Shown: positions 2,563-48,577, numbered from the stretch's first letter. The stretch is DNA of 64,000 nt from an uncultured Crocinitomix sp. (GCA_964415335.1 CAYPZN010000006.1:11657-75656); one strand, 5' to 3'. Numbers and translations are program-made. Notes: generated from the letters alone by a model not told the origin.

Positions 2563-2832
2563 TGGGTAATAAATTTAATTTTGCCTACTCTATTTGATTT
2601 TCAGCTACCTCATTTATCAGCTAAATTAAAGTAAAAAGATAAGTGCTTTTGTGCAAATTCAATTGCGTTAACAGTTTATTCAAATGTGCTCATTTTTGGT
2701 TCAAATACGTTTTTTAAAAAAATCTAATCGACTTAATTTGATTGTTAAACTATAAATTGAATATCTTTGTCGTGGGTTTTCTGAAAAATGTTATTCATTG
2801 ATTTTACTAATTAACCCTACCACTCAGTTTAT

Positions 2833-16339: not shown

Positions 16340-16343
16340 ATTT

Positions 16344-17402
16344 CTAATTGTTAAAAATTAAATTATTTGCATTCAACCCTCCTTGAAACTCAAACTGAAA
16401 AGTACCAGTTAAGTCGTATACTCTAATTGTAGAGGAATTAACATATCCATTAGCATCAACGCAATAGATTCTATTTTTTACGAGATCAATATGAATTCCA
16501 AAAAAAGTTTCAAAACCACTTCCATCAATCAACCTAGTTGGATCGGATACTTCGGTAATTGTATTTATTCTGAAAACTCCTTTTTCTTCAGTATCATAAT
16601 AATAAAGCCAATCACCGGCAGTGGTTATCGTAGAAATTGGTTTCTCTATTGTCTCTAATACATTTTCAGTAGAAGGATCTATCCGCATCAAAGCAGGACT
16701 AATATCTGAATGGTTTCCACGAGAAAGCAAATAAATTTCTCCTTCTGAATCTAGATCGATTTGAGCCGCATTAATTCGTGTTTCAAACGTTGAAATAACT
16801 GCTTTTGTGTCCATATCAATTACTGATATGGTTGAGTCGTAAACAGGAAAGTTTAATCCTCCAGAATTTACAACGTATAAACGATTATCAATCGTCAATA
16901 AACCATCTGGATTAGCACCAACCTCAACAATGGCTTCAATGGTATATGTATCTAAACTAATTACAGCAACTGTTCCATCAAAATTACAAACGAATGCGTT
17001 TCTTCCATATACTTTTACCCGGCGTGGAGACCGTCCATTTGCACCATTAAAAATAGGGATTTGAGCAACTGTTTTTAGCGTAAATCGCTCAATAATTTCT
17101 ACTTGACTAGAAACATCTACTGCAATGATTATATAATCTTCTCCATCAAGGCTATAGGCTTCAAAATCATTTGCCGTATCACCCAAGCCTCTTCCGTTTT
17201 CTGTTTGAAAAACTTGTTGAAATTCTTCCCCATTTTCATTTGAGTAAAAAGATAAAGTTGCATTGTTTTGCTCGAATAATCCCTCGTTAAGTGCAACAAT
17301 TCCATTTTCAAATTCAGCTGGATTTTCAGGTGGTTCTGGTGGTGTTTTTTTACAGCCTAAAATGACTATAACTACAAATATTATTAGTGTTTTTATTTTC
17401 AT
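16344..17402 (-). CDS. Surface lipoprotein, YncE/BtuG-like beta-propeller
   Basis: 352-aa ORF. Lipobox VILGC. The motif GIVALNEGLFEQNNATLSFYS is followed by repeated propeller-blade-like segments (..YVVNSGG.., ..ISVIDMDT..). Its start overlaps the TonB-receptor stop (ATGA at 17399-17402). The family assignment is from memory of the Bacteroides BtuG/DUF5074-type proteins. Confidence 0.65.
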   Translation of the reverse strand: MKIKTLIIFVVIVILGCKKTPPEPPENPAEFENGIVALNEGLFEQNNATLSFYSNENGEEFQQVFQTENGRGLGDTANDFEAYSLDGEDYIIIAVDVSSQVEIIERFTLKTVAQIPIFNGANGRSPRRVKVYGRNAFVCNFDGTVAVISLDTYTIEAIVEVGANPDGLLTIDNRLYVVNSGGLNFPVYDSTISVIDMDTKAVISTFETRINAAQIDLDSEGEIYLLSRGNHSDISPALMRIDPSTENVLETIEKPISTITTAGDWLYYYDTEEKGVFRINTITEVSDPTRLIDGSGFETFFGIHIDLVKNRIYCVDANGYVNSSTIRVYDLTGTFQFEFQGGLNANNLIFNN

Positions 17403-19393
17403 TTGTCAAAAAAGTATTTTAATCGCAATTGATAATGTCTCCCTGGAACAGGAAAGCTACGAATTGTCTGATAATTATTGTCTAAAATATTGTTTGCATT
17501 TAACGCTATTCTCAATTTTGATTTTTGCCAATTCACCGATTTTGCCAAACCGATATTTATATCTGTATACGAAGGAAGGTAATTCGCGAAAATATTTTCA
17601 TTCAAGGAGTATCTCCCACTACTATATAGGGCATTAATACTAAATTTATATCCACTTCGATCAATACTAATTCCACTGGTATTGGTATAAAATGGAGTAT
17701 AAGGAATTTGATCTCCAAAAGTAATCCCATTAATATCTGTGACATCAATGGAAGAGTTAAATGCTTGATTTGTAGTCAAATTAAATTTTGTTTTACCGCT
17801 TGAAAGCGTCAATAAAGCTCCAATATCAACCCCTCTAATTTCAGTTTCTCCGATATTTTGAATACTCCAATTAAATAAGTCCTTCGTTGGGATTGCAACT
17901 ATTTTGTTTTTAACTTCATTGTAATAGGCATCAACTGTAATTTCGAAAATTGCCTTTTTTCTTTTAACACCATAAGTCACTCCCAAATTAAATAGGTTTG
18001 CGTCTTCTGGTTTTACATCTGAATTTCCAATAAAGTTATAGTAGAGATCGTTAAAAGTCGGTAGTCTAAAGGTATTTTTGTAAAATGCTCTTATTCTAAA
18101 ATTTTGTTTCTTTATTGGAAGGTAAGCAAAGGATAAGAAAGGAGAAAATCTGAAAAAAGTTTGCTGATTGGATGTATTATTTTGAGTGAATTCATCAATG
18201 ACATATTGGGTTGAAAAATTTCCTTGAATTCTCAATTTTTTAATCCAGGTTCCGCCGCCCAAAACAGTATTACTTTGTAATCGAAACGGATTTGCACTTA
18301 CATCATTTCCAACCAATGTATTTTGTAAAAGATCAGATCCTAAAAAGACTTTCTCTGTTAAAAAACGAAATTTTCTGGTCAGAAAAAAACCTCCTCCAAC
18401 GTTTCTTTGATCGTATTCAGAATCAATAAAACCTTGTAAATTAAAGAAATTAGGATCTAAATAACGTGTATAGGTCGATTGATATTTAAAATTGGTATTC
18501 AACACCCATTTTTTGACAGTATAACTATGATTTAAATTGAATCGCCAGTCTGTATTCCACAATTGCTGATCGTTAGAAGGGTTGAATAAAACAGCAGCTC
18601 CAGGCAATTCTTGTGTATTTTCATTAAAAAATAAACTTGCAGTAACTTTATGCTGTTTCGATTGATAACCAACCAATCCTCTTAATCTATAATTAAACAG
18701 GCGTGTATTTTCTCGAATTAGGTCAGGAGAATCAACTGCCTGTTGAGGAATTCTAAAACGAAAAACACCATTTCCAAAACGGGTCAGGCCTTGAAAACCA
18801 ACATAGAATTTTTTTCCTATGTTCGTTTGAATATAACCTCCTTTTTCATAAGCATTAATTGTCGTTGAATTTGAATAGAGTCCTATCCGTAATGCTTTCG
18901 GTTTTTTTGAAAGCACAGAGTTCAATGAAATCGTATTGGCTTGTGTAAACGCAGATGCAGTTGCGTTTTTATCTAGGCTTTGTCCTGAAGAGAAAGCTAC
19001 TGATTCTAATCCAAACAATTCAAAAGAAGAGAGATTAACAATTCCACTTTGCACGTTTGGAATTTGGTTTCCATCCAATTCAACAGTGGTATGCCCAGCT
19101 CCTAAACTTCTGAAAGAAACGGTTTTGATTCCTCCTATTCCACCGTAATCTCGCAATTGAATTCCAGGAACGTATTTTAACGCTTCTCCAACATCAGTTG
19201 CTCCTAATTCATCAATCTTATCTGCGTTAAATTTAAAATGTGGAACCGGAGAAATGATTACTGCTATTCGTAAAACAGTATCTCTTTTGGCAAAAACGGG
19301 AATTTCTTTTAACGTTTTTGTCGAATCTTGCCCAAATAAAAAGGGCATAAAAAGGATACAAAAGCTACTAAATATGAGTAATCTTAATTGCAT
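17399..19393 (-). CDS. TonB-dependent receptor, BtuB-like (cobalamin/corrinoid receptor by context)
   Basis: 664-aa ORF. Signal peptide, a plug region (..ELGATDVGEALKYVPGIQLRDYGGIGGIKTVSFRSLGAGHTTVELDG..), and a C-terminal barrel ending ...RHYQLRLKYFFDK. It lies downstream of a cobalamin riboswitch. Confidence 0.8.
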   Translation of the reverse strand: MQLRLLIFSSFCILFMPFLFGQDSTKTLKEIPVFAKRDTVLRIAVIISPVPHFKFNADKIDELGATDVGEALKYVPGIQLRDYGGIGGIKTVSFRSLGAGHTTVELDGNQIPNVQSGIVNLSSFELFGLESVAFSSGQSLDKNATASAFTQANTISLNSVLSKKPKALRIGLYSNSTTINAYEKGGYIQTNIGKKFYVGFQGLTRFGNGVFRFRIPQQAVDSPDLIRENTRLFNYRLRGLVGYQSKQHKVTASLFFNENTQELPGAAVLFNPSNDQQLWNTDWRFNLNHSYTVKKWVLNTNFKYQSTYTRYLDPNFFNLQGFIDSEYDQRNVGGGFFLTRKFRFLTEKVFLGSDLLQNTLVGNDVSANPFRLQSNTVLGGGTWIKKLRIQGNFSTQYVIDEFTQNNTSNQQTFFRFSPFLSFAYLPIKKQNFRIRAFYKNTFRLPTFNDLYYNFIGNSDVKPEDANLFNLGVTYGVKRKKAIFEITVDAYYNEVKNKIVAIPTKDLFNWSIQNIGETEIRGVDIGALLTLSSGKTKFNLTTNQAFNSSIDVTDINGITFGDQIPYTPFYTNTSGISIDRSGYKFSINALYSSGRYSLNENIFANYLPSYTDINIGLAKSVNWQKSKLRIALNANNILDNNYQTIRSFPVPGRHYQLRLKYFFDK

Positions 19394-19412
19394 CCTTTTT
19401 GTATCTTGTAAT

Positions 19413-20954
19413 TTACTTAATAGTTAATTTTTGTTTCGAAATTTCACCATTAATTGTCGCATAGACAATGTAAACACCTGTATCAAACCTTGATACATCA
19501 ACAGTATTCATTCCTTGTGCAAAAGTTTCGTTTAATAGTACTCTTCCTCCTAAATCTACGATTTTCAAGATTGCTTCTCCTTCAAATTGTACATTAATAA
19601 ATGTACTCGCAGGATTTGGATAAATTGCTAGTTCATTTGCAATTTGTTCATCTATTGATTCAACAGCAGTTGCATTTACACTTAAACTTGGTGGTGTAGC
19701 TGGATTAAATCCAGTATACGAACAACCAAACCAATCACCATCCGACATTTCGGTTCCTATTCCAGTATTTGCATACCATCCACCAACATTCGTTGCACTC
19801 CAAGTTGACCAGAAATTTGGCATTCCTCCTAGGCCTTCAAATCCTAAAGCGTAGATAATATCATTTAAGAACCCTCCTGTTAAGTCAATGTCTAATCCGT
19901 AAGGTTCATAATCGTTCAATGCAATCAAAACATCTTCTGCGCTAATTGTTTCTTCATCAAAATTATATCCAAATGCAAACGACTCTCCAGGTAACCATTC
20001 ATTAAAATCAATTACAACTACTGCCCGATTTGTTCCTGTGCCAAATAAAAAATCGAGAGTACTAATTACTAAATCAGCAGAATCAATTGCAGGAATTGGA
20101 TAAAATGGTCTTCTTGGTGGCCATTCATCATAAGAAACACCAAACCAATCACCATCATTAATTGTCATTCCTAATCCTGTGTTCATTGTCCAATCTGACA
20201 AATTTGTTCCACTCCATGTCCCCCAAAAACCTGGCATTCCACCAATTCCTTCAAGCATATTGTATTCAATATCATTTAAGAACATATCTGCATCTACGTT
20301 TAAGTTTACATCTGCAGCATCAATATCTGCTATCATAGTTCCTGCATCTGTAGTTCCATCAAATCGATAACCCCATGCGTAAGTTGCTATTTCACCAAAA
20401 CTAGATGTAACAAAATCTGTAACAAAAACGGCTGTATTAGCACCTGTCCCCACCCAAAACTGGATGTCAGCTTCAGAAAAGCGACTTGATTCATAAGCAG
20501 GAATAGGTTCTCCAGGAATTAAAGGAGGCATAAAATCAGTGTAAGAAAATCCAAACCAATCTCCGTTATTTAAAACTTCTGGCAGTCCTGAATTTGCTAT
20601 CCAATCTGTATCAGCAGTTCTACTCCATGTGCCCCAAAAATTAGGCATCCCTCCGATTCCTTCATGTGCATTATAAGTAATGTCTGATAGAAAGCCCATA
20701 GCCGTTACAAAATCCAGCTGATCTTCATCTGCTGCCACTGCGGCAAGCATATCTCCTCCAGTTACAGTTGCCGAAGCATCAAAAAGAAATCCCCACGCAT
20801 AAGCAGAATCTGGTGTTCCATCAATAAAATCGATAACCATAACTGCTGTATCCGGCCCTGATCCTACATAATAAATTAAATCGTTTTGTGTGAATTGGGC
20901 TTTTCCCAATAATGAAATGAGTGCGAACACTCCTGTGAGTAAAATTTTTCTCAT
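19413..20954 (-). CDS. Secreted protein with three tandem ~115-aa repeats plus a T9SS type-A C-terminal domain; first gene after the cobalamin riboswitch
   Basis: 513-aa ORF. Signal peptide MRKILLTGVFALISLLGKAQ. The repeats fall at about residues 27-140, 165-277 and 301-416. They share G(S/T)G.(D/N).AV.V.DF...(Y/F)A(W/F)G(F/Y).FD...FL(S/N)DI.Y...EG(I/L)GGMP.FW(G/S)TWS...W..N(S/T)G......GDWFG.SY. Tail LAIYPNPASTFINVQF...FDTGVYIVYATI. Confidence 0.75.
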   Translation of the reverse strand: MRKILLTGVFALISLLGKAQFTQNDLIYYVGSGPDTAVMVIDFIDGTPDSAYAWGFLFDASATVTGGDMLAAVAADEDQLDFVTAMGFLSDITYNAHEGIGGMPNFWGTWSRTADTDWIANSGLPEVLNNGDWFGFSYTDFMPPLIPGEPIPAYESSRFSEADIQFWVGTGANTAVFVTDFVTSSFGEIATYAWGYRFDGTTDAGTMIADIDAADVNLNVDADMFLNDIEYNMLEGIGGMPGFWGTWSGTNLSDWTMNTGLGMTINDGDWFGVSYDEWPPRRPFYPIPAIDSADLVISTLDFLFGTGTNRAVVVIDFNEWLPGESFAFGYNFDEETISAEDVLIALNDYEPYGLDIDLTGGFLNDIIYALGFEGLGGMPNFWSTWSATNVGGWYANTGIGTEMSDGDWFGCSYTGFNPATPPSLSVNATAVESIDEQIANELAIYPNPASTFINVQFEGEAILKIVDLGGRVLLNETFAQGMNTVDVSRFDTGVYIVYATINGEISKQKLTIK

Positions 20955-21080
20955 CCTTTTAAAATTTTGCCTTTAATTTTTTGGCGTGTTAATAATAAAA
21001 AGGAATAGCAACGAAGTATAAGGGTGTCAAAAGCACCTCCTAAACTTTGCTTTTATCCCGAAAGCTTGTTTTATTAAGAA

Positions 21081-21236
21081 TTGGCAGGTCTTCTGACTTA
21101 CTCCTTAAGATTTAAACCCTTCCCGTCTAGATAACAGACAGTGGTAATGTTTAAACGTTTTGAAGCTTACAGCTGCGGGAACAGTTCAAGATTTTCACTT
21201 GATTCCCATTTTAATTCCGACAATGTCAGAAACCAA
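21081..21236 (-). promoter_or_regulatory. Cobalamin (B12) riboswitch
   Basis: The minus-strand RNA reads UUGGUUUCUGAC...GGGAAUCAAGUGAAAAUCUUGAACUGUUCCCGCAGCUGUAAGC...CCACUG...CGGGAAGG...AAGUCAGAAGACCUGCCAA. It contains the B12 box AGUCAGAAGACCUGCC (21083-21098) and the conserved GGGAA / GUGAAAAUC / CCCGCAGCUGUAA / CCACUG / GGGAAG core elements. P1 is formed by UUGG..UCUGAC pairing with GUCAGA..CCAA. It lies 126 nt upstream of the first operon ATG. Confidence 0.85.
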
Positions 21237-21245
21237 AACTTGGCG

Positions 21246-21253
21246 CAAAGATA
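21246..21253 (-). promoter_or_regulatory. Bacteroidota-type -7 promoter box (TAnnTTTG) for the riboswitch operon
   Basis: The minus strand reads TATCTTTG, about 10 nt upstream of the riboswitch P1 stem, with a TTG-containing stretch about 20-25 nt further upstream. Confidence 0.5.
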
Positions 21254-31300: not shown

Positions 31301-31304
31301 AAAA

Positions 31305-31690
31305 TACAGTAAATCTATAAGCCGGATTCTGTTTTTCAATCAAATGATTAAAAATCTTGTCATTTATCTCGTTCTAAAATCACTTTTAGAATCAATCCAT
31401 CTACCCTCCAAGATTGGCCGAGTAAGCCTCAAACCTTGGTATACATGATGTTTCAACTCATGAGGTTTACCATGCCTTTTAAATCACTTTAAAAGCGGTG
31501 AGCTCTTACCTCACCTTTTCACCTTTTCCTAATAATTCATATCCATAAGGAAATGTATTGTTAGGTAGTCTATTTTCTGTGGCACTTTCTGTTTCTATTT
31601 TATCAATAGAACCTTCCAGTTAGGAAGCATGTTACTCTGTGTTGCCCAGACTTTCCTCTATTAAAAAATAGCGACAAGACGATTTACATT
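31305..31690 (-). ncRNA. rnpB: RNase P RNA (bacterial type A)
   Basis: The minus strand contains P4 5' GAGGAAAGUCUGGGC (revcomp of 31646-31660 region), GUGCCACAGAAA, GGUGAAAAGGUGAGGUAAGAGCUCACCGC, GGUAAACCUCAUGAG, GGGUAGAUGGAUUG, and P4 3' ACAGAAUCCGGCUUAU. P1 is GUAAAUC (31681-31687) paired with GAUUUAC (31309-31315). A TATCTTTA near-consensus -7 box sits just upstream (31695-31702). The ends are approximate to within ±10 nt. Confidence 0.9.
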
Positions 31691-36443: not shown

Positions 36444-37508
36444 ATGAAAATGAAAAAATTATTCGTTGCTTTAGTATTTACTGCTTTATCTTTATCAGTA
36501 AATGCGCAAGTTGTAGAATCATATGGAGGTGGTATAGTTTCTGAAAATTCGGTTTTGGATAAAATTGACCTTAAAGAAATCGGTCGATCTATCCATGTTG
36601 CGAGCATTGAAGAAGGAAATGTTGTTGTTCGTCGTTTTTATAGAGGCAAATGGGAGGAATTTGATCCTACTCCATTAAAAGGTATTTCTAAAGTAAAAAC
36701 ACTAAAGTTGTTTGCTTATCGCGCTGTTCCATATTTATTTTGTCAATATGATGATAAAATGTCGGTAATCAGGGCAATTGGCGATAAGTGGGAATTTGTT
36801 GGAGAAGAAACTTTTGGTGAAGGTAGTGTTGTAGACCCTCAATTTTCTGTGGTTGGTGAAAATCCATTTATTTTATATAAGGACGAAGAATTTGAAGTAA
36901 TTCGAATGATTTCTTTGTTAGATGATTCTTGGTATGATGTTGATTTAGTTGCAAGCGAAGGAATCCGTTCTCATAAGTTAGCTTCAAGTGCAAGAGGGGA
37001 TCTTTTCGCTGCATTCTTAAGTGAAATTGGTATTACAATAAAAAAGGTAAATCAAACTACAGAATATGATACTTGGTCTGATCTTACTAAAAAAATAAAA
37101 TTAGAAAACATTAGTTATATTGGTGATTTTAAATTTGTTGAAAACGTAGCATACATCACTTACCCGAATGAATTAGGATCTCCAGTAATTACTTCTCTCG
37201 CTGATGGAGGAAAGAAATGGGAAACTTTAGAAGAGATGGAGACAGCTCTTGTTTTTGGAAAAAAGGATTATAATTTAAATATATCTGAATATTATTTCTT
37301 CACTTCACTGAGTGATGGAGGTATTCCTCAATTTTTGAAAAATAATAAGAAAGGAAATTGGGGAGATGTAACAGATTTGTCTGATAAAAAAGCCAAAGCA
37401 ATTGCTTCTGATGACTATAGAAATATTATTTACATTGGTTTCGTAAACAGTTCTTCGAAATTAATGGTTAAAAAAATTGAAAAGGGAGAAAATGACGAGG
37501 ACAATTAG
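36444..37508 (+). CDS. Hypothetical exported protein
   Basis: 354-aa ORF. Signal peptide MKMKKLFVALVFTALSLSVNAQ. No recognised domain. Confidence 0.55.
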   Translation: MKMKKLFVALVFTALSLSVNAQVVESYGGGIVSENSVLDKIDLKEIGRSIHVASIEEGNVVVRRFYRGKWEEFDPTPLKGISKVKTLKLFAYRAVPYLFCQYDDKMSVIRAIGDKWEFVGEETFGEGSVVDPQFSVVGENPFILYKDEEFEVIRMISLLDDSWYDVDLVASEGIRSHKLASSARGDLFAAFLSEIGITIKKVNQTTEYDTWSDLTKKIKLENISYIGDFKFVENVAYITYPNELGSPVITSLADGGKKWETLEEMETALVFGKKDYNLNISEYYFFTSLSDGGIPQFLKNNKKGNWGDVTDLSDKKAKAIASDDYRNIIYIGFVNSSSKLMVKKIEKGENDEDN

Positions 37509-38653: not shown

Positions 38654-39733
38654 CTATTTAATTTCAATTGATAGTCCAATTGAATGTACTCCATTAAATA
38701 ATCTTGTTTGACGGTATGCATACTGAATTCCAAGTAAACTTTTGCTTTTTCCAGCAATTGCATCTACAGAAACACCAGCAGTTAATCCGCTTAAGGCAGT
38801 AACTCTTGATCCAAAATCGAATTCATCAGAGAATAACCCTTGTTCATAAACATAACCAGCCATCAAATTAAATTTTGCTTTTTCTAACTCCATTCCATAG
38901 TTCAATCCTATTCTGAACTGATCATTTGAGAAAGAGTTTGCAGAGAAAGCAAGCGCTAAGATTAATTTATTTGTTTCAGTGAAGTTAAAATCATAAGAAC
39001 CTCCAATTGACAATAAAGATGGTAATTCAAATGTAGCAGAACGTTGCTCTAATGTAGCTACATCTCCTGAATTAGGATACTGTACTTGAAAACTTAATCC
39101 ATCTCCTTGGAAATTGATTGTAGGACCAACGTTTTTAAGAGCAATACCAAATTTTACTTGATCTTCTTCTCCTGTAACGTATCTAATTCCTGCATCAACA
39201 GCTACTCCTGTACCTCTGATATCAGCAATTGATTCAGAAATTACTTTGAAGTTAATTCCACCATAAATAGAGTTTGAAAATTCTCTTGCATATCCAATAT
39301 TAAAGTTTGAATATGTTGGAGAAAATGTTCCATTTCCACCTTCTGGTAAATTTTCTGTTGTAATATCAATTTCACCAAAGTTCATTGCCATTACTGTTAC
39401 AGAAATAACACCACTTTCGGAAACTCTTTGGGCTAAACCAGCAGAGTTAATGTTAATCCCTGATCCACCTAACCAGTTAGTACGGTCAAAGCGAACCTGC
39501 GTTTTATCCGTAAAAGCTAATCCAGCAATGTTCGTATAAACTGCATCTAGACCAGTTGCGCTAGAAATTCCAGCATCCGCCCAAGCAGCACTTCTTGCCC
39601 AAGGGTTAATTAATAATTCTGTAGCTCCAGCGGAACCAACTCTATCACCATTTCCAGCGAAAGAAGTTGTCCCTAGGCTCAATGCCATACTAGCTAAAAC
39701 TGTTTTTCTAATTAATTTATTTAATCTCATCAT
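38654..39733 (-). CDS. PorV/PorQ-family-like outer-membrane beta-barrel protein
   Basis: 359-aa ORF. Signal peptide, then GSAGATELLINPWARSAAWADAGISSATGLDAVYTNIAGLAF. This resembles the PorV/PorQ N-terminal signature (..fL.i...aRaaamGgAgvA......NPAgla). The barrel ends ...HSIGLSIEIK. It starts 27 nt after the upstream gene's stop. Confidence 0.65.
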   Translation of the reverse strand: MMRLNKLIRKTVLASMALSLGTTSFAGNGDRVGSAGATELLINPWARSAAWADAGISSATGLDAVYTNIAGLAFTDKTQVRFDRTNWLGGSGININSAGLAQRVSESGVISVTVMAMNFGEIDITTENLPEGGNGTFSPTYSNFNIGYAREFSNSIYGGINFKVISESIADIRGTGVAVDAGIRYVTGEEDQVKFGIALKNVGPTINFQGDGLSFQVQYPNSGDVATLEQRSATFELPSLLSIGGSYDFNFTETNKLILALAFSANSFSNDQFRIGLNYGMELEKAKFNLMAGYVYEQGLFSDEFDFGSRVTALSGLTAGVSVDAIAGKSKSLLGIQYAYRQTRLFNGVHSIGLSIEIK

Positions 39734-39760
39734 TGAGTGAATTTCAAATTAATACTAATC

Positions 39761-42700
39761 CTATAGGTTCTGTAAATCAGGTTGTCTTAACACACCAAAC
39801 CATTTGAGAATTCTTTCTTCTTTGGTTCCGTCAGGAAGGTCAACTTCAACGTGAATAATATAAACACCTCCAGCGATAGGAATACCTCTATGATTTTGAA
39901 GATCCCAATCTAATGATGTTAATGGATCATCTTTTTCAAATGTTCTTACTAATGCACCCTGCATATTAAAGATAGTAACTGTACATCTTTCAGGAAGATT
40001 TGTAATCTTAACTCTGTTGTCCAATCTACTTGTCTCGTATTCAGAATAAGCATAGTAAGGATTAGGTACAACATTAATGTTATCTAATACCGATACTAAA
40101 CGATCTGTATCTGCTGTTCTTGATGGCTCATCAAAACTGAACTCATATAACGGATAACCTTCGTTTGAATTATTTACTTCACGTTCTTCATAAGGCTTGT
40201 TAATACGAGCACTAATCTTAACATCAGTATCTAACAATGGTGAGTTTTCCTCTAACATTGGTTCCATTACCCAGAAACAAGTTTCCCAAGCAGATCTGAA
40301 GTTTGTGTTACGAGTACCAGGGCTAGCTACATCATCTACCTCGAACATTTCTCTTAACCAAGCTCCATTATCATAAGGTCTTTCACCTTCATCAGTTCCA
40401 AAAACATATACATAATGCATTCCTCCAAACAATGGCACAAACGAGTTGTCAGCAAAACTTGATGTTGGATTCCAGATCATATCGTCTCCATTATCTCCAG
40501 TTAACCAAGAGTTTTCTGAGAACATCATATTTAATCTTTCTCCTGTATTTACATCTATTGCATATCCAGGGAACCATCCCATACCTGTTGCGTTAACTAG
40601 GTCTCCTTCGGCAGCGTTATAACCTTGTTCACCTGCGCTCAATCCGTTTTTATCAACAGATAAGTCACCTCTAGGCTCAAGAATAACGTCTCCGTGTTCA
40701 GTTTGATCTAAGATATCGTTAATCTCGATTACAGGGCATCTTGACCATAGTGATTTGTCATTTGTAATGATAATATCCACATCATGTAAGAGTGAAAATC
40801 TTGATTGACTTTGTGCCGTTCCTGCAGAAGTAAACCAAGTTTGATTTGATTCATACCAAGGTGTAGCTGTATTTTCTCCTGGGAATCCGTAAGGACTTCC
40901 ATAAGGACCTTTTCCAACTAATGAGAATGGTGCAATTCCTCCGTTCAATAATTGCTCATAAAGTGAGTTCTCTTGATCAAGTGGGAAATCATCATAATGA
41001 CATGGTTGTCTAAACCACATATCCGCAACACAACCTGGATTAGGTGTAGTAGGATGATCTGCCCCCTCACTAGAGTTTCCTGAACGAATCCAGTTTGTAG
41101 GATAAAATTGATCATCATCTTCTACAAAAGTTAACCATCTTTTTCCAGGATCAGCAAATGTCATAGAAGCTCCAATTGGTTCTGTAAATGTGCCAACACC
41201 AAAACCTTCATATTGTTGCTGCCTTACAGTAATCGAAAGTCCCCATTCAAGAATCAATTGTTCTCTAACAATAGAGATAGAAGTATCACTCCAAACAGTA
41301 TCAATAGCTCCTTCAAATGTTCTTTCTAACCACCATCTTGAATCATCTAAGTCACTCTCGCTATTGTCAAATCCAAGTCTATAGTTACCACCTTGAAGAT
41401 TTAACGGGTCAACTACTTTAACTTCAACAGGACCAGAACCACTTTGGTAAGTAGGACTATCATCTTTTCCTGTTGATAAAATTGTATTTACAGTTTCATC
41501 TGTTAATTCTAAGAAAACTCCTCCATTTCCTTCACCTTCAATTTGTGTAATTTCCGGTTGGAATCCATAAGTTGTAGTAAATACTCGTCCATCAGCTTCA
41601 GGAGATGGATCATGTGGAATACCAACAACAGCCTCAATTCCTCCATTAATAGAAGCACGAGATCTTAAGTATGGTCTTCTTTGTCCATCAAGAGCAGTAG
41701 GATCATTAGGATCAAACGTTTTGAAGTTATTATGTGCATAAGAAACTGCGATATAATAATACTTTCTATGATTTACTAAAGTTCTATCTCCGTTTGCAAA
41801 AAGGTCTTCAGTAACAACGAAAGATCTTCTGATTCCTTCATCTAAACCAAATGCACCTGCTGGTTCTACAACAACTTCAGGAATAGAAATATTAAGTTCT
41901 TCATCAAATGTGTAGTTTACTAATTTCCCAACTCCATTTTGAATATCAGTTTGAGCAATTAATCTTGCTTTAGATAAATCTCCAATATCAGATATAGATG
42001 CATTTTCATCTACCATTTGGAAAATTTGGAATCCTTCAAATCTGAATAAATCATCATAAACAATTCCCATTTCTAATAGTTCATCCGGCGTAATAATGTT
42101 AATTCTGTCTCTTTCTGTATAATTTTCAAGTCCAATTGGTCCTGGAGGATCAGATAAGAATAATACAAGTTCGTTTTCTAATTCTTGAATTGTCATAACT
42201 GGCGCCAATGGTGGCTCAACTAATTCGAAACAGTTATCAAAAAGAGCTTGTGCTTTTGTATCTGCAGTTTTTAGTGCTCTAATAGGTGCTTCAATATCTG
42301 ACTCTGTACTTCTTGCTACTACAACACCAACAGTAATATTATTTACTGCTCCAGGTCTTAAGACAAAAGGACCAGCTGATTGAAGGAATCGTCTATCTCC
42401 AGAAGGATTCATTTCAGTTAATTCAGACCAAGGATCTGTTGAAGGAAGTGCATTTGGAAAAGTACCCCATCCTAATGGATCAGAATCATCAGGGAACATA
42501 AATCTAGTTGGAACACCTGAACCGGTTGTATTACCATTACCACCAAATTGCATTGGCAATCCATCTAACCATATTCCTCTTAAATAACTATAAAAATCTG
42601 CAGCTGTATTTGGATCATTATATGGTCCAGGTCCAATTCCATGGAAAACAAATCGTTGCATTCCATAACGTTCATTATCTACTACACCATCTCCATAACC

Positions 42701-43924
42701 AATTCCATTTAATGCTTCTCCATCTGCAATACCTTCTGCATTATCAATACCATCATTATCTTGATAAGGCCCTTCAAAGAAATCGACACCTACTGCTGGA
42801 GGATTAGCTCCATAACCTGGTTGCCCTGCTTGTCCAGCATCAGTTAAATCTCCATTATAACAAAATCCTAATCCACGCCCAACATCACAACCGACAAGGT
42901 CATTAGCTGCAAATCCTACATCTGGATCCACCCATTGACCAAAGAATGTATTTTGAAGTGTTTGTGTACCTCTATTAATTAACTCATAATTATAGAATGT
43001 CATGTCATTTACCTCATCATCAGTAGCAAAAGTAAATGCTTGTGCTCTTACTTCCATTCCAATTGGATCACCACCAGTTTCAGTGTGAATATTTCCACGA
43101 TCATTAAAAACCCACCAATGCGTTTCATCTCCAAATAAAGTAACGCGGCGATCATTTCTACAATCTACTACATCTTCAATATCATACCAAGGGTAATCAC
43201 CGTCAGCAATTGGATCATAAACACCATTTCCAGTTTCTCCTGGTAATGCGTTATCGAAGAATGGTGCTAAATAAAAATCTTCACCTATAGACTCATCACC
43301 ATGTGCTGGCCATTCTTGAATTCTTCTAAAAACATCTTCAGATGGTCTGATAATGTCTCCACAATCTGCTGGATCAGTTACACCGTTTTCACAGTTCCAC
43401 CAAGCAATAAATTGAAGTACTTCACTTTTTCTGATTGTAAAGAATTGATCGTAAAAACTACACGTTGCAGGTAAAATTTCAGCCGCACCACTGTTTCTCA
43501 CAAGATTTAATTCTGCAGATTGTGGAATAAACGGATCATAATTTCCTGTTCCTGGGATTAGACTGTTTAGAGGGCCAGCCCAGAAATCGTTTCCTTGTCT
43601 AAATAGATGTGCAGCCAATTTTAACTGACCGTTAACATCTTCACCACCCATCCAAAGTGCTCCTGAGAATAGAACGTGATTACCACTTCCTTTAGGGAAC
43701 TCATAAGACGCTGCTGTATTTGCACGATCTTGCCACAACGACCCACCTGTTTCGACTAAGGCTCTAATATTGTTAAACTCTACGAATAATCTTTCATTTG
43801 AAGGAGCACAATCAGCCGCTCTCGACTCAATTGTTTCCGACACTGGATGAAGATTTTCGTAGTAGTAACCGAACATTGTGTTCGCTACTCCTAACATTAA
43901 AATATTCAATAATAACTTTTTCAT
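39761..43924 (-). CDS. Very large (1387 aa) secreted protein of unknown function with a FlgD-Ig/PorU-like C-terminal domain
   Basis: Signal peptide MKKLLLNILMLGVANTMFG. I recognise no catalytic motif. The C-terminal ~100 aa read VVPNPYYAYSEYE...VKITNLPERCTVTIFNMQGALVRTF...LDWDLQNHRGIPIAGGVYIIHVEV...KWFGVLR. Confidence 0.7.
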   Translation of the reverse strand: MKKLLLNILMLGVANTMFGYYYENLHPVSETIESRAADCAPSNERLFVEFNNIRALVETGGSLWQDRANTAASYEFPKGSGNHVLFSGALWMGGEDVNGQLKLAAHLFRQGNDFWAGPLNSLIPGTGNYDPFIPQSAELNLVRNSGAAEILPATCSFYDQFFTIRKSEVLQFIAWWNCENGVTDPADCGDIIRPSEDVFRRIQEWPAHGDESIGEDFYLAPFFDNALPGETGNGVYDPIADGDYPWYDIEDVVDCRNDRRVTLFGDETHWWVFNDRGNIHTETGGDPIGMEVRAQAFTFATDDEVNDMTFYNYELINRGTQTLQNTFFGQWVDPDVGFAANDLVGCDVGRGLGFCYNGDLTDAGQAGQPGYGANPPAVGVDFFEGPYQDNDGIDNAEGIADGEALNGIGYGDGVVDNERYGMQRFVFHGIGPGPYNDPNTAADFYSYLRGIWLDGLPMQFGGNGNTTGSGVPTRFMFPDDSDPLGWGTFPNALPSTDPWSELTEMNPSGDRRFLQSAGPFVLRPGAVNNITVGVVVARSTESDIEAPIRALKTADTKAQALFDNCFELVEPPLAPVMTIQELENELVLFLSDPPGPIGLENYTERDRINIITPDELLEMGIVYDDLFRFEGFQIFQMVDENASISDIGDLSKARLIAQTDIQNGVGKLVNYTFDEELNISIPEVVVEPAGAFGLDEGIRRSFVVTEDLFANGDRTLVNHRKYYYIAVSYAHNNFKTFDPNDPTALDGQRRPYLRSRASINGGIEAVVGIPHDPSPEADGRVFTTTYGFQPEITQIEGEGNGGVFLELTDETVNTILSTGKDDSPTYQSGSGPVEVKVVDPLNLQGGNYRLGFDNSESDLDDSRWWLERTFEGAIDTVWSDTSISIVREQLILEWGLSITVRQQQYEGFGVGTFTEPIGASMTFADPGKRWLTFVEDDDQFYPTNWIRSGNSSEGADHPTTPNPGCVADMWFRQPCHYDDFPLDQENSLYEQLLNGGIAPFSLVGKGPYGSPYGFPGENTATPWYESNQTWFTSAGTAQSQSRFSLLHDVDIIITNDKSLWSRCPVIEINDILDQTEHGDVILEPRGDLSVDKNGLSAGEQGYNAAEGDLVNATGMGWFPGYAIDVNTGERLNMMFSENSWLTGDNGDDMIWNPTSSFADNSFVPLFGGMHYVYVFGTDEGERPYDNGAWLREMFEVDDVASPGTRNTNFRSAWETCFWVMEPMLEENSPLLDTDVKISARINKPYEEREVNNSNEGYPLYEFSFDEPSRTADTDRLVSVLDNINVVPNPYYAYSEYETSRLDNRVKITNLPERCTVTIFNMQGALVRTFEKDDPLTSLDWDLQNHRGIPIAGGVYIIHVEVDLPDGTKEERILKWFGVLRQPDLQNL

Positions 43925-43955
43925 ACTTTCTTTTTTAACTTCTAAGTTTTAAGGA

Positions 43956-46900
43956 TTAAAAGTCGAATTTTACACCTAATCGAATTGTTCTTGGAATACC
44001 ATAGTTAAATGGATTTTGAACTTTCAACGTATAATAATCTCTGAATGATTGCTCATCCAACTGGTTTTGAATTGAAGCTTGGAATTGAGATGCTGCTAAA
44101 TATCCATCATCCCCAGGGTTACCAGTAGCCCTGTATACATTTAACACGTTAATGATATTAAATAGGTTGGTTGCACGAACATATACATTCAAGTAAGCAG
44201 CTTTCTTTTTGTTTTCATCATCTCCAAATTGAAGTGTGAAATTTCTATCCAATTGAAGATCTACTCTATATTGCCAAGGTTTTCTTGATCCATTCAACGA
44301 TCCATCTAAAGGAGCAGAACCTCCAGCTAATAAAGCTTCTCCTGCTGCTTGTGTAAATCCAGAATAAGGTGAACCTGAACCTAATTGAGTTACAACATTC
44401 AATCCTGTATTTTCAAGAACTCCAAATCGACCTATAGATGGCCCGTTATAATCTTTTCCTCCTCCATAACGATAATCAAGTACTACGTTGATAACGTGTC
44501 TTTGATCAAAAGAGAATGGGAAAATTGTTCTTAAGTTTGGTTCTCCTGAGTTAACTAAACTTGCAGCAGATGTTGCATCTGTTCCAGTTCCTTCAGCAAA
44601 TTGCAATGTATAAGAAGCTGTCATTCTAATGTTACCTGTTCTTCTTAAATCATAAGAAACTGTTAACCCTTTTACTGTTCCGAAATCTCTATTTCCAAAA
44701 GAACGATACGTATTAGGGAAAGCAGAGAACACGTTAATTAACTGAACTTGATCTCTTTGTTCTTTATAAAAAGCAGAGATTTTTAAAGAAGATGTTTTTG
44801 TTAAAACCTGTTGGAAACCTAATTCATAATCAATTGTTTTCTCTGGTCTTAAGTTAGGGTTGTTAATTACAACGTTCCTATCTTCAATAAACTGGTATTG
44901 AATAGGATCAAATCTATTTCCTGTTGTTGGTCTCTTTGTTAAGATATCGTAATGAGCGAAGAAAGAAGCTTCATCAGAAATCGGGAAAGAGAAAGCAACT
45001 CTTGGAGATACATTTATCTGAGGTTTATAGTCTTCAAAAGACTCAGCCGTTGGTGTATCTAATGTAGGGTCTAATAACCAAGGAGCAATTCCTGAACTTC
45101 CTTCAAGAATACTTGGATCTGCGATTTCAACACCATCAGCATTAAACCAAGTTTCTCCATTTCTATAACCATTAATTGCAGTTGGATTATCAACATCATT
45201 TACATATACAATAAAATCATCTCCAATATTTTCTGGGTGAGTAATTGGAGCACCATTGTCAAATTCTGTTGCCTCTCTAGCTGTTCTAGCTTCATATAAC
45301 AAGAAAGGATCTTTTAACACTGGTTGATTCGCATCAAAGATATCAACACGTACACCTACGTTAAAGATAATATCATCAAAGGCAAATTTATCAATTAAAT
45401 AACCCGCTGTATAGATTGGTTGGAAAGCTCCAATTGTTCTAGAGAAGTTTTGATCTTCATTAAAATCATTGAAATAAGCATTAATATCTGTATTTCCTCT
45501 AATTTTATTTCCAGTATGATCATAGCCAAACCATGTAAACAACGTGTTTCCAGAGTTTAATAACTCATCAGCACTAAACTGATCTAATGTAAAGAAGTCT
45601 GGATCTAATGCATCAATATCAATAAAATCTGTTCCATCTGGATCTAATCCTAACTTTCTTCTTAAGTTGTAATCAAAGAAGAATTGTGCATCTCCGTTTT
45701 CTTGCCCACCAAATTCACCTTTAGAAGCGTTCAAACGATCAAAAGTTACTCTTGGGAAGGTACCGAAGAAATCAAATGTTGCCTCTTCTCTGTCTAACTC
45801 AGTAATATGGTTATTTGTTAACTGTCTAGCAATTGTCCAAATTCCTAATGGATTCCCTCCAAATGATCTATCCCATCTTTGCTCATATTCGAAACCTAAA
45901 GATATTGCGTGATCATTTAAGTTAACTGTACCTGAACCTGTAATTCTGAATTGATCAGCTTGACTGAATCCGTAGAAGTTAAATGGAGTTCCTAAGTTAT
46001 TCCAAATACCATATACACTTTGAGGAGCATCTCCATTTCTTAATCCATTTCCTTGCTCAATTTGAAATAAGTTTTCGAAGTTTCCTACTGGCTGACCAGC
46101 AAAGATATCGAAGTACTGACTTGTAATTGCTGCAAAAGCTTCGTTTGTTGCAGAAGGAGTAAACTCAACTAAAGTATCTCTAAATCCATTGTGAATTAAA
46201 CTATCTCCTGCGTCATTGAATTCATAAGTTATTTCTCTAAACGTTTCAAATGTACCAACATGTCCATAGTTAAATATGCGATCTTCATGTTTTGCATCCC
46301 ATGTTCTTCCGTGGGTTTGAGAATAATCCACCTGAAGTGAATAGAAAGCACTTTTAATTTTAGAAGTAGAACCTTCTTGATTGTTATTAAATCGTTGTGT
46401 AAAACGTCCATAAACTCTCCAATCATAGTTTCTTGATTCACCAAAATTATCAAAGTTCAATAATGAATTATTATAATTATAGTTTCTTCCGTTATTATAT
46501 GCAAACGATCCTCCAAATGTTAAATTCACATTTGGCCCAGCATTAACATCAATTTTACCTGCTGCTGAAACTGATCTATTTCTTGCATTTTGTCTCCAAG
46601 CCACTTGTTCAAAATCAGACAATGCTGGATCCTCATTATCTCGTAAAAAATCTGTATTAAAGAAAGCTCCTGTCCCAAGTCCTGTAGGTCGAAGTGGGTT
46701 CGCCAAAAGCTCATCTCGCACCTCTCTTTTTACTCGGTAAGCACCACCATTTGCTAGTGGTCTTCCATCTAATACATCTTGATAATTAACAGAAAGGAAG
46801 AAACCTAAAATAGGTTTTGATGTCTTATTCCCTAATGAATCTTTTTTTAACAATAACGGCCCAGAGATTAATCCCTCTGTAAGGTTATACGCATATTGAT

Positions 46901-47684
46901 CTAAACCGAAAACTCTTCCATCATATCCTAATGGATCTTCACCATTAACATAAAAACCAGAAGTTACACCTTCAAAAGAACCAAAGTACTTCGCAGAAGG
47001 TCCTCTTGTTGTAATTGAGATAATCCCCCCTGTTATATCACCATAATTTGCAGGAACTCCCCCTGTAATTACAGCAACCTCTTGAATTGCCGATTTAGGA
47101 AGTGCTGACGACCCTCTTACTTTAATCCCATCTATATAAAAGAAGTTAGCATCTGATCGAGCACCACGGATATTTAATCCGCCCCCACCTTCTTGGCTTA
47201 TTACACCACCAACTGTAGCTGCAATACCTTGAGCCGAACGAAGTGGTAATTTTTTAATATCTTCTCTTGTCACAGTAGCACCTGAAGCACCTCCATCTTT
47301 ATCAATTAATGGAACTTCATAGTAAGTTACCTCTACCACATCCAATAACTCAGATGAAGGAGACAAGTCTAAAGGTAAAATTGTTAGTTTATCTGAATTG
47401 ACAACAACTCCTTCTTTACGAATAGAGGTGTACCCAACGAACCTAACCTCTACTGCGTATTCTCCAGGAGGAAGTGAACTAACTAAGAATTTACCGTCAA
47501 AATCTGTCGCTGCAAAACCTTTTTGCTGACCAGATTGAAAAACAACAACCTTAACGAAAGGCAGCGGTTCTCCAGAACTTTTATCGGTTACTGACCCCTT
47601 AATGGATCCGTTACCGGTTTGTGCAAAACTAAAACTTGCTGAAAACAAGAGCATTACACATAATAATTTTAGATGTTTAAGCAT
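43956..47684 (-). CDS. Oar-like giant TonB-dependent outer-membrane receptor (CarboxypepD_reg + plug + ~1000-aa barrel)
   Basis: 1242-aa ORF. Signal peptide, then GSIKGSVTDKSSGEPLPFVKVVVF...TDFDGKFLVSSLPPGEYAVEVRFVGY (CarboxypepD_reg). The plug reads TREDIKKLPLRSAQGIAATVGGV...LNIRGARSDANFFYIDGIKV. The C-terminal barrel ends ...RTIRLGVKFDF. No SusD-like gene follows it. Confidence 0.8.
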   Translation of the reverse strand: MLKHLKLLCVMLLFSASFSFAQTGNGSIKGSVTDKSSGEPLPFVKVVVFQSGQQKGFAATDFDGKFLVSSLPPGEYAVEVRFVGYTSIRKEGVVVNSDKLTILPLDLSPSSELLDVVEVTYYEVPLIDKDGGASGATVTREDIKKLPLRSAQGIAATVGGVISQEGGGGLNIRGARSDANFFYIDGIKVRGSSALPKSAIQEVAVITGGVPANYGDITGGIISITTRGPSAKYFGSFEGVTSGFYVNGEDPLGYDGRVFGLDQYAYNLTEGLISGPLLLKKDSLGNKTSKPILGFFLSVNYQDVLDGRPLANGGAYRVKREVRDELLANPLRPTGLGTGAFFNTDFLRDNEDPALSDFEQVAWRQNARNRSVSAAGKIDVNAGPNVNLTFGGSFAYNNGRNYNYNNSLLNFDNFGESRNYDWRVYGRFTQRFNNNQEGSTSKIKSAFYSLQVDYSQTHGRTWDAKHEDRIFNYGHVGTFETFREITYEFNDAGDSLIHNGFRDTLVEFTPSATNEAFAAITSQYFDIFAGQPVGNFENLFQIEQGNGLRNGDAPQSVYGIWNNLGTPFNFYGFSQADQFRITGSGTVNLNDHAISLGFEYEQRWDRSFGGNPLGIWTIARQLTNNHITELDREEATFDFFGTFPRVTFDRLNASKGEFGGQENGDAQFFFDYNLRRKLGLDPDGTDFIDIDALDPDFFTLDQFSADELLNSGNTLFTWFGYDHTGNKIRGNTDINAYFNDFNEDQNFSRTIGAFQPIYTAGYLIDKFAFDDIIFNVGVRVDIFDANQPVLKDPFLLYEARTAREATEFDNGAPITHPENIGDDFIVYVNDVDNPTAINGYRNGETWFNADGVEIADPSILEGSSGIAPWLLDPTLDTPTAESFEDYKPQINVSPRVAFSFPISDEASFFAHYDILTKRPTTGNRFDPIQYQFIEDRNVVINNPNLRPEKTIDYELGFQQVLTKTSSLKISAFYKEQRDQVQLINVFSAFPNTYRSFGNRDFGTVKGLTVSYDLRRTGNIRMTASYTLQFAEGTGTDATSAASLVNSGEPNLRTIFPFSFDQRHVINVVLDYRYGGGKDYNGPSIGRFGVLENTGLNVVTQLGSGSPYSGFTQAAGEALLAGGSAPLDGSLNGSRKPWQYRVDLQLDRNFTLQFGDDENKKKAAYLNVYVRATNLFNIINVLNVYRATGNPGDDGYLAASQFQASIQNQLDEQSFRDYYTLKVQNPFNYGIPRTIRLGVKFDF

Positions 47685-47853
47685 AAGTAAGCGTGTTTGT
47701 TAAAAAATCTTAAAACAATAGCCCGTAAATATAGGCATTAATTTAATTTATCTACCAAAAAAAAATAACAAAATTTAACAGTATAAATTCAATTCCAAAT
47801 TTACGATTACAATAAGTGATTAGAAAGTGTAAGACGCAACAATTTACTTCAAA

Positions 47854-48144
47854 TTATACAAGTCTATTGTTCTTTTGAGGTTTCCCCCTTTGTCTTCTTC
47901 GAGCATTCTTTGCTGCTCGTTTCATTCTTTTACGAGTTGCCTTATCTTGATTACGCCACGTTTTTCTTCGGCTTCTCTTTTGTCTTTTGTAAGTACTCTT
48001 TACTTGTTTATTTCTCCCCCCTTTGTTTCCTGACTTAACACTCTTCGCTCCTTTATCTTGCACAAAGCCAACTTGAGGTGTCACAACAAGGGATACAATA
48101 ATTATTAGTAATTTCGTTATTAAAGTACGTAACAGATTAATCAT
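47854..48144 (-). CDS. Possible small, extremely basic exported protein
   Basis: 96-aa ORF. The N-terminus is hydrophobic (LITKLLIIIVSLVVTPQVGFVQ). By my count, 29 of the last 67 residues are K or R. Its start codon overlaps the divergent ATG at 48143, so whether it is a real gene is uncertain. Confidence 0.3.
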   Translation of the reverse strand: MINLLRTLITKLLIIIVSLVVTPQVGFVQDKGAKSVKSGNKGGRNKQVKSTYKRQKRSRRKTWRNQDKATRKRMKRAAKNARRRQRGKPQKNNRLV

Positions 48145-48577
48145 GCAACAAATATATTTAAGATACTTTTTAATATCTACACTTTTAACAACTTTCTTAT
48201 TAACATCTTGTGAAGAACGGAACTATCCTATTCCTAACCTGCCTGTTAACAGAACATTAAACCTTGATTTGCCCGCATATGTGGCACTTAATTCTCCAGG
48301 AGGATACGCATATGTTAATGGAGGATCGAGAGGAATAGTCGTTTATCGTAATTTCGACGAGTTTATCGCTTTGGATCGACATTCAACAATTAATTCTGAT
48401 ATGGAATGTGCTGTAGTTGACGTTAATCCTGACAATCCATTTGAACTTATTGATACCTGCTCTAATACAACATACAGCATCCTTACTGGAGTTGTTTTAA
48501 GCGGATCTGCTCAGTTTGCATTAAGACGCTATAATGCACAATGGGACGGGGCTTTCACCGTCAATATTATAAACTAA
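48143..48577 (+). CDS. Hypothetical lipoprotein
   Basis: 144-aa ORF. Signal and lipobox LLTTFLLTSCEE. Small beta-rich domain; no family assigned. Confidence 0.55.
   Translation: MQQIYLRYFLISTLLTTFLLTSCEERNYPIPNLPVNRTLNLDLPAYVALNSPGGYAYVNGGSRGIVVYRNFDEFIALDRHSTINSDMECAVVDVNPDNPFELIDTCSNTTYSILTGVVLSGSAQFALRRYNAQWDGAFTVNIIN

Follow-up and report, generated by a model that had tools for sequence, protein, structure and literature searches.

A conserved gene trio for a TonB-dependent transporter, a large protein with a type IX secretion-type tail and a PorV/PorQ-family barrel in Crocinitomix and allied Flavobacteriales

The trio and its protein families

Three neighbouring genes for predicted outer-membrane and surface proteins, here called g1, g2 and g3, were analysed in DNA of an uncultured Crocinitomix sp. 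(GCA_964415335.1 CAYPZN010000006.1:11657-75656), and they proved to be conserved together as a module. The whole stretch of 64,000 nucleotides (nt) is referred to as the window, and positions are counted from its start. The genes lie head-to-tail in one apparent operon with intergenic gaps of 31 nt (g1/g2) and 27 nt (g2/g3), and the 142 nt between g3 and the following greA hold a terminator. Sec signal peptides are plausible on all three products by sequence inspection, and none of them has a lipobox. An earlier note, made from the sequence alone, had described this three-gene set on the minus strand, with its coordinates and gaps and a strong terminator at its end, and the open reading frames (ORFs) together with a 14-bp hairpin and its T-run bear the description out. 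The features are as follows.

43956-47684, minus strand: g1, TonB-dependent transporter (TBDT) by sequence, 1242 amino acids (aa), with signal peptide, CarboxypepD_reg N-terminal extension (NTE), plug and large barrel
39761-43924, minus strand: g2, predicted large secreted surface protein, 1387 aa, with signal peptide, mostly beta, without Pfam coverage
39764-40078, minus strand: C-terminal domain of g2, residues ~1283-1387, a tail of the immunoglobulin (Ig)-like kind that a type IX secretion system (T9SS) uses, with a conserved extension
38654-39733, minus strand: g3, PorV/PorQ-family outer-membrane barrel, 359 aa, matching NF033709
38571-38611, minus strand: intrinsic-terminator-like hairpin at the end of the operon (hairpin 38611-38581), with 14-bp stem, 3-nt loop and T-run

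The assignment of g3 rests on curated hidden Markov models (HMMs). Against NF033709, the model of the PorV/PorQ family, its score was 138.7 bits (cut-off 90) over model positions 3-325 of 326, which makes it a member of that family. Both equivalog models failed, PorV (NF033710) at 64.3 of 250 required, with orthologues at 22-70, and PorQ (NF033711) at 73.7 of 220, with orthologues at 42-75. PorV2 (NF052325) gave no match to g3 at E<=0.01 and only 47-59 of the 325 required for its orthologues, and the PorP/SprF model TIGR03519 gave 18 against a cut-off of 90.6. A profile of g3 orthologues matched the structure of Flavobacterium johnsoniae PorV (6h3i_F) with an E-value of 1.3e-13. The PorV/PorQ likeness that had been read from its N-terminus is therefore confirmed, and because the family model was passed while the PorV, PorQ and PorV2 equivalogs were failed, g3 represents one more clade within the family, separate from PorV as well as from PorQ, and its orthologues are separate from PorV2 too.

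The product of g2 is of a different nature. No Pfam domain was found over its full length at E<=0.01, and neither a C25 peptidase nor any other catalytic domain appeared in Pfam, NCBIfam or PDB sequence searches, the sole PDB match being an unrelated protein at a non-significant E-value of 0.41. Precomputed Pfam domains were also missing from every one of ~240 homologues among the matches listed. The earlier statement that g2 is without a catalytic signature thus stands, and its designation as an "orphan giant" has to be given up, since the family counts thousands: a word-indexed search gave 5,292 significant matches, and when cluster representatives were searched exhaustively there were 6,996, with 1,703 reaching E<=1e-30. 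The members that carry names belong to Crocinitomix, Paracrocinitomix, Putridiphycobacter, Fluviicola, Salibacter, Salibacteraceae, Cryomorphaceae and unclassified Flavobacteriales. A family of ~7,000 representative clusters that Pfam does not cover is a sizeable blind spot in annotation.

AlphaFold2 models of g2 were built in two overlapping pieces from a 106-sequence alignment and reached a predicted local distance difference test score (pLDDT) of 88.3 for residues 1-760 and 85.4 for residues 700-1387. In a Foldseek search, residues 1-760 weakly resembled the non-catalytic beta-supersandwich of glycoside hydrolase (GH) enzymes of families GH15, GH94, GH116 and GH63 (best E-value 3e-6), and the alpha/alpha catalytic barrel of those enzymes is not present in g2. 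The middle ~500 residues had no convincing structural relative in the PDB or in the BFVD viral structure library.

All HMM signals of g2 are confined to its last ~100 residues, and all stay below cut-off: PorZ 23.8 of 260, PorU 18.7 of 420, the type-A sorting domain TIGR04183 20.8 of 23, and FlgD 18.2 bits, while in Pfam FlgD_ig reached 16.7 and Por_Secre_tail (PF18962) 14.8, both against 27. The match to PorZ (NF052228) spans model positions 666-740 only, and that to PorU (NF033707) positions 995-1090 of 1095, which belong to the tail, so that g2 is neither PorZ nor PorU by these models. With the C-terminal half as a Foldseek query, the top match was PorZ (5m11; E-value 9.8e-6, 25% identity, 142 of 688 columns), and PorU (6za2; 175 columns, tail only) and FlgD were also matched by the tail. 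Type-A tails are clear on seven other proteins of the window at 33-48 bits. The earlier note had set the g2 tail apart from these ordinary type-A tails, which holds insofar as it scores below the cut-off, unlike the seven cargos; however, it carries the PNP...G.Y motifs of type-A tails, falls short of the TIGR04183 cut-off by ~2 bits, and belongs to a family in which many homologues are named type-A sorting-domain proteins by NCBI. Because its type-A score lies just below the cut-off, against 33-48 bits in its neighbours, the g2 tail is best described from its sequence as a divergent type-A-like domain.

This tail is the best-conserved region of g2, with a column entropy of 1.15 against 1.62 for the rest, and between g2 paralogues of the same genome it is 74-90% identical whereas the body is 65-76% identical. 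Past its last strand there is a conserved extension, KWFGxxRxxDLDN[LF], which is missing from at least one g2 paralogue that stands alone.

A large cargo-like gene followed by a PorV-family barrel, with weak PorU and PorV HMM matches, might suggest nothing more than the known porU-porV pair next to a transporter. Since the PorU, PorV and PorQ models all failed and C25 is absent, this reading is almost certainly wrong: the PorU score of 18.7 against 420 comes from positions 995-1090 of the 1095 in the model, g2 has no Peptidase_C25 or other Pfam domain and no PDB sequence match beyond the unrelated one at 0.41, and g3 reaches only 64.3 of 250 for PorV. These HMM scores rule out a canonical pair, as the earlier note had maintained in setting the locus apart from porU-porV.

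A Pfam search with g1 returned CarboxypepD_reg (PF13620, 58.5 bits, residues 27-101) and Plug (PF07715, 35.2 bits). The barrel model PF00593 gave no match to g1 itself in this search and was matched by its orthologues, and a profile of 24 orthologues matched solved structures only via the plug, the best being the colicin I receptor (Cir) with an E-value of 6.5e-10. A candidate TonB-box-like motif, DVVEVTYY, was noticed by inspection only. Given an NTE with a plug, a profile that finds the plug of Cir and orthologues with PF00593, we regard g1 as a genuine TBDT on its sequence. There was no SusC/RagA model among its NCBIfam matches, and no SusD-like partner follows, as the next gene, g2, has no SusD family match in Pfam; the earlier picture of CarboxypepD_reg, plug and large barrel without SusD-like partner is in agreement with this.

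The earlier note went further in calling g1 Oar-like and in proposing that the trio may be a dedicated module for surface assembly or secretion, in which g1 would be the channel by which g2 is exported and g3 its carrier. In g1, PF13620 does precede the Plug and barrel, which is the architecture of the Oar subclass, and it is by architecture only that the name seems to fit. However, the same architecture dominates among the TBDTs of Bacteroidetes and is not diagnostic (PMC6434023). Because it is the commonest one, the label says little on function and does not appear to point to export, and we found no other link of g1 to Oar. Since g2 carries a T9SS signal at its C-terminus and has a PorV-family partner, it would already have an exit and need no second one; a folded, beta-rich protein of 150 kDa would be unlikely to pass a plugged 22-strand barrel; and g2 as well as g2-g3 exist without g1, as described below. 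We therefore consider an export role of g1 very improbable.

Conservation, duplication and neighbouring genes

Across related genomes, 71 of the first 84 loci had g1, g2 and g3 in this order, at g2 identities down to ~40%, and most of the others are truncated where a contig ends. The g1-g2 gap is ~20-40 nt across the 71 trio loci. Next after the trio, greA and a HIT-family gene are usually found, and the synteny of the window, ahcY / small ORFs / g1-g2-g3 / greA / HIT / ruvC, is kept even at ~40% g2 identity. Carriers are Crocinitomicaceae, Salibacteraceae and other Flavobacteriales. One further locus (L085) also carries the ordered trio, and another (L087) has preserved it, together with the small ORFs upstream of it, between unrelated flanks (NAD kinase; Mur ligase). 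Identity of g1 is 57-82% across most loci, so that it is conserved more strongly than g2. Because the ordered trio recurs in 71 of 84 loci with g2 identity as low as ~40%, its adjacency is far beyond chance, and we conclude that it is a vertically inherited module of Crocinitomicaceae and allied aquatic Flavobacteriales. That the three genes would be kept as a unit in other genomes, as the earlier note had supposed, is thus borne out.

Several metagenome-assembled genome (MAG) records with this Flavobacteriales-type locus are labelled Akkermansia, Chryseobacterium gleum, Candidatus Planktophila, Arenicella or Chitinophaga pinensis (among L026, L059, L052, L075, L071, L022, and L028). These odd labels are probably binning or labelling errors.

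The bonds within the trio are not of equal strength. L086 keeps g2-g3-greA-HIT-ruvC with no TBDT upstream, and L006 has the order g1-g2-g3-g2'-g3', its g3' being divergent and, at 89 bits for a cut-off of 90, on the border of the PorV family. Since the former retains g2-g3 without g1 and the latter has duplicated g2'-g3', the link between g2 and g3 is the tightest, and g1 is usually, not always, attached to them. A second full-length g2 paralogue lies in the g3-greA interval or after HIT in eight loci (L003, L005, L006, L008, L013, L016, L017, and L080), the window being without one, and solo paralogues occur elsewhere. As second and solo paralogues recur, g2 behaves as a cargo family expanding by duplication. 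A dedicated carrier or anchor role of g3 for g2, which had been suggested earlier, remains plausible in view of the conserved tail, its match to the C-terminal domain of PorZ and the retention of g2-g3 without g1.

Two observations concern the surroundings of g2-family genes. The slot between HIT and ruvC, which elsewhere holds a second g2 paralogue, is occupied in the window by a 354-aa signal-peptide protein (36444-37508, plus strand) with no Pfam match, and this protein is kept at the same slot in several Crocinitomix loci with 55-65% identity. In seven loci (L079, L082, L009, L021, L004, L007, and L019), g2-family genes adjoin genes that encode a Y_Y_Y/Reg_prop sensor histidine kinase and/or LytTR response regulators, in three arrangements, namely upstream of the trio (Salibacter), next to a paralogue that stands alone, and downstream of HIT (Crocinitomix). 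These genes are absent at the corresponding position of the window, and where they recur they may be the regulators.

The tighter bond of g2 with g3 brings in a simpler explanation of the locus, in which only cargo and cognate shuttle belong together, g2 being a surface adhesin, coat or enzyme displayed by g3, and g1 merely a co-operonic importer. This would account for g2-g3 without g1 in L086, for duplications that involve g2 alone or with g3' and never g1, and for solo g2 paralogues in unrelated contexts, and it has a precedent by analogy with PorP/SprF, where it is established that type-B tails have shuttles encoded beside the cargo (PMC12618676). It accords poorly with the finding that g1 lies directly 5' of g2 in 71 loci of the first 84 and does so between different flanks too, with the higher conservation of g1 than of g2, and with a linkage that would be unusual for functionally unrelated genes at roughly 40% g2 divergence. 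On balance we hold it to be unlikely, though by no means negligible.

The likeness to PorZ, taken with the genomic setting, allows for yet another explanation, in which the lineage has an accessory of its own for the T9SS or for building the outer membrane and surface; it could for example replace or add to the PorZ/PorQ arm and serve other cargos, not a nutrient. PorZ is the best HMM match of g2 and the best structural match of its tail, PorQ is the best equivalog match of g3, and the module is single-copy and core-like within a housekeeping synteny (ahcY ... greA-HIT-ruvC). However, the likeness to PorZ is confined to the tail (142 of 688 columns; model positions 666-740), g2 is twice the size of PorZ, multiple g2 paralogues per genome are typical of cargo rather than machinery, and the TBDT would be left without a role. 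We take Fluviicola taffensis to be a member of the Crocinitomicaceae. Homologues of T9SS components have been reported from this species, with PorU in the expected clade (PMC7323717), which likewise speaks against a replacement, and we judge the accessory explanation to be improbable.

The module extends past the trio, as two small genes upstream of g1, which did not figure in the earlier listing, travel with it.

47854-48144, minus strand: 96-aa basic protein, an ORF with hydrophobic N-terminus and Lys/Arg-rich tail
48143-48577, plus strand: 144-aa predicted lipoprotein with lipobox LLTSC, an ORF divergent from the 96-aa gene
47685-47810, minus strand: g1 leader, with a TAnnTTTG box and ~55 nearly invariant nt before the ATG

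The start codons of the two small genes overlap on opposite strands in a CATG at 48142-48145. Codon-like conservation of the 96-aa ORF was seen in a 10-locus DNA alignment (A8), and homologues occupy the same position in L087 (E-value 4e-9), L080 and L085, in BLAST searches without composition correction, where low complexity may inflate significance. Orthologues of the 144-aa lipoprotein, 35-45% identical, lie beside the trio in the same three loci. It has no Pfam match, and a profile of nine orthologues gave a weak top PDB match to a Rieske protein (E-value 0.026) in which the cluster ligands are mostly replaced; a Rieske assignment in Pfam, having sub-threshold support only, was rejected.

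The 458 nt upstream of g1 hold the 96-aa ORF and the conserved leader. The leader contains an exact TAnnTTTG box (TAAATTTG, ~47796-47803) and a second arrangement, TTTG-N22-TATATTTA, which, by the published Bacteroidota -33/-7 consensus, would be putative promoter elements. The ~55 nt 5' of the g1 ATG (47685-47740) are almost invariant across ten loci, whereas coding regions there differ by 20-25%; they could be a binding site for a protein or small RNA, or a promoter or translation element. No conserved RNA structure was found in the leader with RNAalifold (10 orthologous leaders, -0.83 kcal/mol, no covariation), and no Rfam family or riboswitch in the 458 nt. RNA features elsewhere in the window include a class A RNase P RNA (31302-31690, minus strand, 239 bits) and a DUF805b RNA motif (2582-2614, minus strand, 40.8 bits).

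A possible capture partner for the transporter

The reading that we put forward, tentatively and with somewhat less than even confidence, is that g2 reaches the outside by way of the general T9SS, is held on g3 via its uncleaved tail, and captures a substrate for import by g1. The protein would leave the cytoplasm via Sec and then cross the outer membrane through the general T9SS translocon. Its PorZ/PorU-like tail would stay uncut and docked on g3, as PorZ is on PorQ and PorU on PorV, and g2 would in this way be displayed on the surface beside g1. There it might capture a substrate of large size, perhaps a glycan or some other polymer, for g1 to import with energy from TonB. In such a scheme, g2 and g3 would do for g1 what surface lipoproteins such as SusD and BtuG do for other Bacteroidota transporters.

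We infer this capture role from several lines taken together. The tail is the most conserved part of g2; the tails of PorU and PorZ are reported to be uncleaved, with PorZ anchored on PorQ (PMC10947112); cognate PorV-like barrels have been hypothesized in a review to shield tails from cleavage (PMC10202324), next to the cargo-adjacent shuttles cited above; and stable complexes of surface proteins with TBDTs have been described as ubiquitous in Bacteroidota (PMC12578637). The homology of the g1 plug to the plugs of classical importers is in line with import. As to the substrate, the supersandwich fold and the recurrent Y_Y_Y kinase/LytTR genes are weak hints of a glycan.

A second pairing of T9SS cargo with TBDT in the window offers a supporting analogy. 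It is a four-gene operon (15356-21252) headed by a cobalamin riboswitch.

21066-21252, minus strand: cobalamin riboswitch RF00174, 109.7 bits, at the head of the operon
19413-20954, minus strand: T9SS type-A cargo, 513 aa
17399-19393, minus strand: BtuB-like TBDT
16344-17402, minus strand: DUF5074 protein
15356-16339, minus strand: T9SS cargo, 327 aa

Where this B12 operon has T9SS cargos, Bacteroides has surface lipoproteins such as BtuG. By analogy, the order of T9SS cargo, BtuB, DUF5074 and T9SS cargo under a B12 riboswitch hints that transporter partners secreted by the T9SS could be a general design in these bacteria.

Several points weigh against the capture of a substrate by g2 for g1. 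The supersandwich match is weak (TM ~0.17, 10% identity), and neither a catalytic nor a binding domain was recognized in g2 in Pfam or PDB sequence searches. The strong conservation of the tail could reflect constraint by the general T9SS alone, and a co-divergence test in L006 failed, as the tail of g2' is 86% identical to the g2 tail though g3' is only 42% identical to g3 of the window. Because solo g2 paralogues without g1 or g3 exist and L086 is without g1, g2 does not strictly need g1. Upstream of g1, finally, there is no riboswitch or known regulator site that would give a clue to the substrate.

Taken to its full extent, the proposal amounts to a capture or lid subunit of a TBDT that is a T9SS-exported non-lipoprotein, with its uncleaved tail clamped by a private PorV paralogue. 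This would be an undescribed design, and we think it rather doubtful that every part of it applies. If true, g3 would stand for a fourth functional PorV/PorQ clade, and there would be a direct mechanistic link of type IX secretion with TonB-dependent import.

Comparison with known systems

In the current view of the T9SS, PorV is the general shuttle, PorQ serves PorZ, and PorP/SprF-like barrels serve type-B cargos. The module described here joins parts of known kinds, namely a TBDT, a T9SS cargo and a barrel of the PorV family. Their arrangement is without earlier description, as no account of it was found in literature on modules of TBDT, T9SS cargo and PorV-like barrel, on links of BtuG with the T9SS, or on the T9SS and TBDTs of Crocinitomicaceae. 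If a further conserved PorV-family clade is tied to a single family of cargos, the concept of cognate shuttles and anchors would come to cover type-A-like tails as well, and with its three to five genes in cultivable Crocinitomix, Paracrocinitomix and Salibacter the module is a simple genetic system for studying cleavage versus retention of tails. If g2 works with g1, abundant aquatic Flavobacteriales would build nutrient-capture complexes from secreted rather than lipid-anchored partners, which would also bear on the unannotated "T9SS sorting-domain" and "TonB-dependent receptor" genes of marine and freshwater metagenomes.

Among transporters, Oar of Myxococcus xanthus, a TBDT required for PopC secretion (PMC6434023), shares with g1 the NTE PF13620, Plug and barrel. 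The likeness is one of architecture, and in contrast to that case g2 already appears to have a T9SS signal. The SusCD, RagAB and BtuB-BtuG systems (PMC12578637, PMC10404256) resemble the module in that an importer is encoded with a large surface partner and the transporter carries CarboxypepD_reg. However, g1 has no SusC/RagA match and no SusD, g2 is without lipobox and would reach the surface by the T9SS, held by a barrel instead of a lipid anchor, and its association with g1 is a presumed one.

Turning to secretion, SprB-SprF and the PorP/SprF-like shuttles of F. johnsoniae (PMC12618676) are similar in having a barrel encoded beside its cargo, and in L006 the pair has been duplicated together; unlike these, g3 belongs to the PorV/PorQ and not the PorP/SprF family, and the g2 tail seems to be type-A-like rather than type B. 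PorV2 (NF052325) is likewise a curated clade that lies outside the canonical members of the PorV/PorQ family, from which g3 orthologues differ by their scores of 47-59 against 325. The nearest parallel is the attachment complex of Porphyromonas gingivalis with its PorZ-PorQ and PorU-PorV pairs. The module departs from it in that the g2 body is unrelated and has no C25, g3 fails both equivalogs, the genes share an apparent operon with a TBDT, several g2 paralogues occur per genome, and retention of the g2 tail is presumed. What the two have in common is an Ig-like T9SS-type tail on a large, in our case predicted, surface protein together with a PorV/PorQ-family barrel, and the g2 tail is structurally closest to those of PorZ and PorU, which are reported to be retained for anchoring (PMC10947112, PMC10202324).

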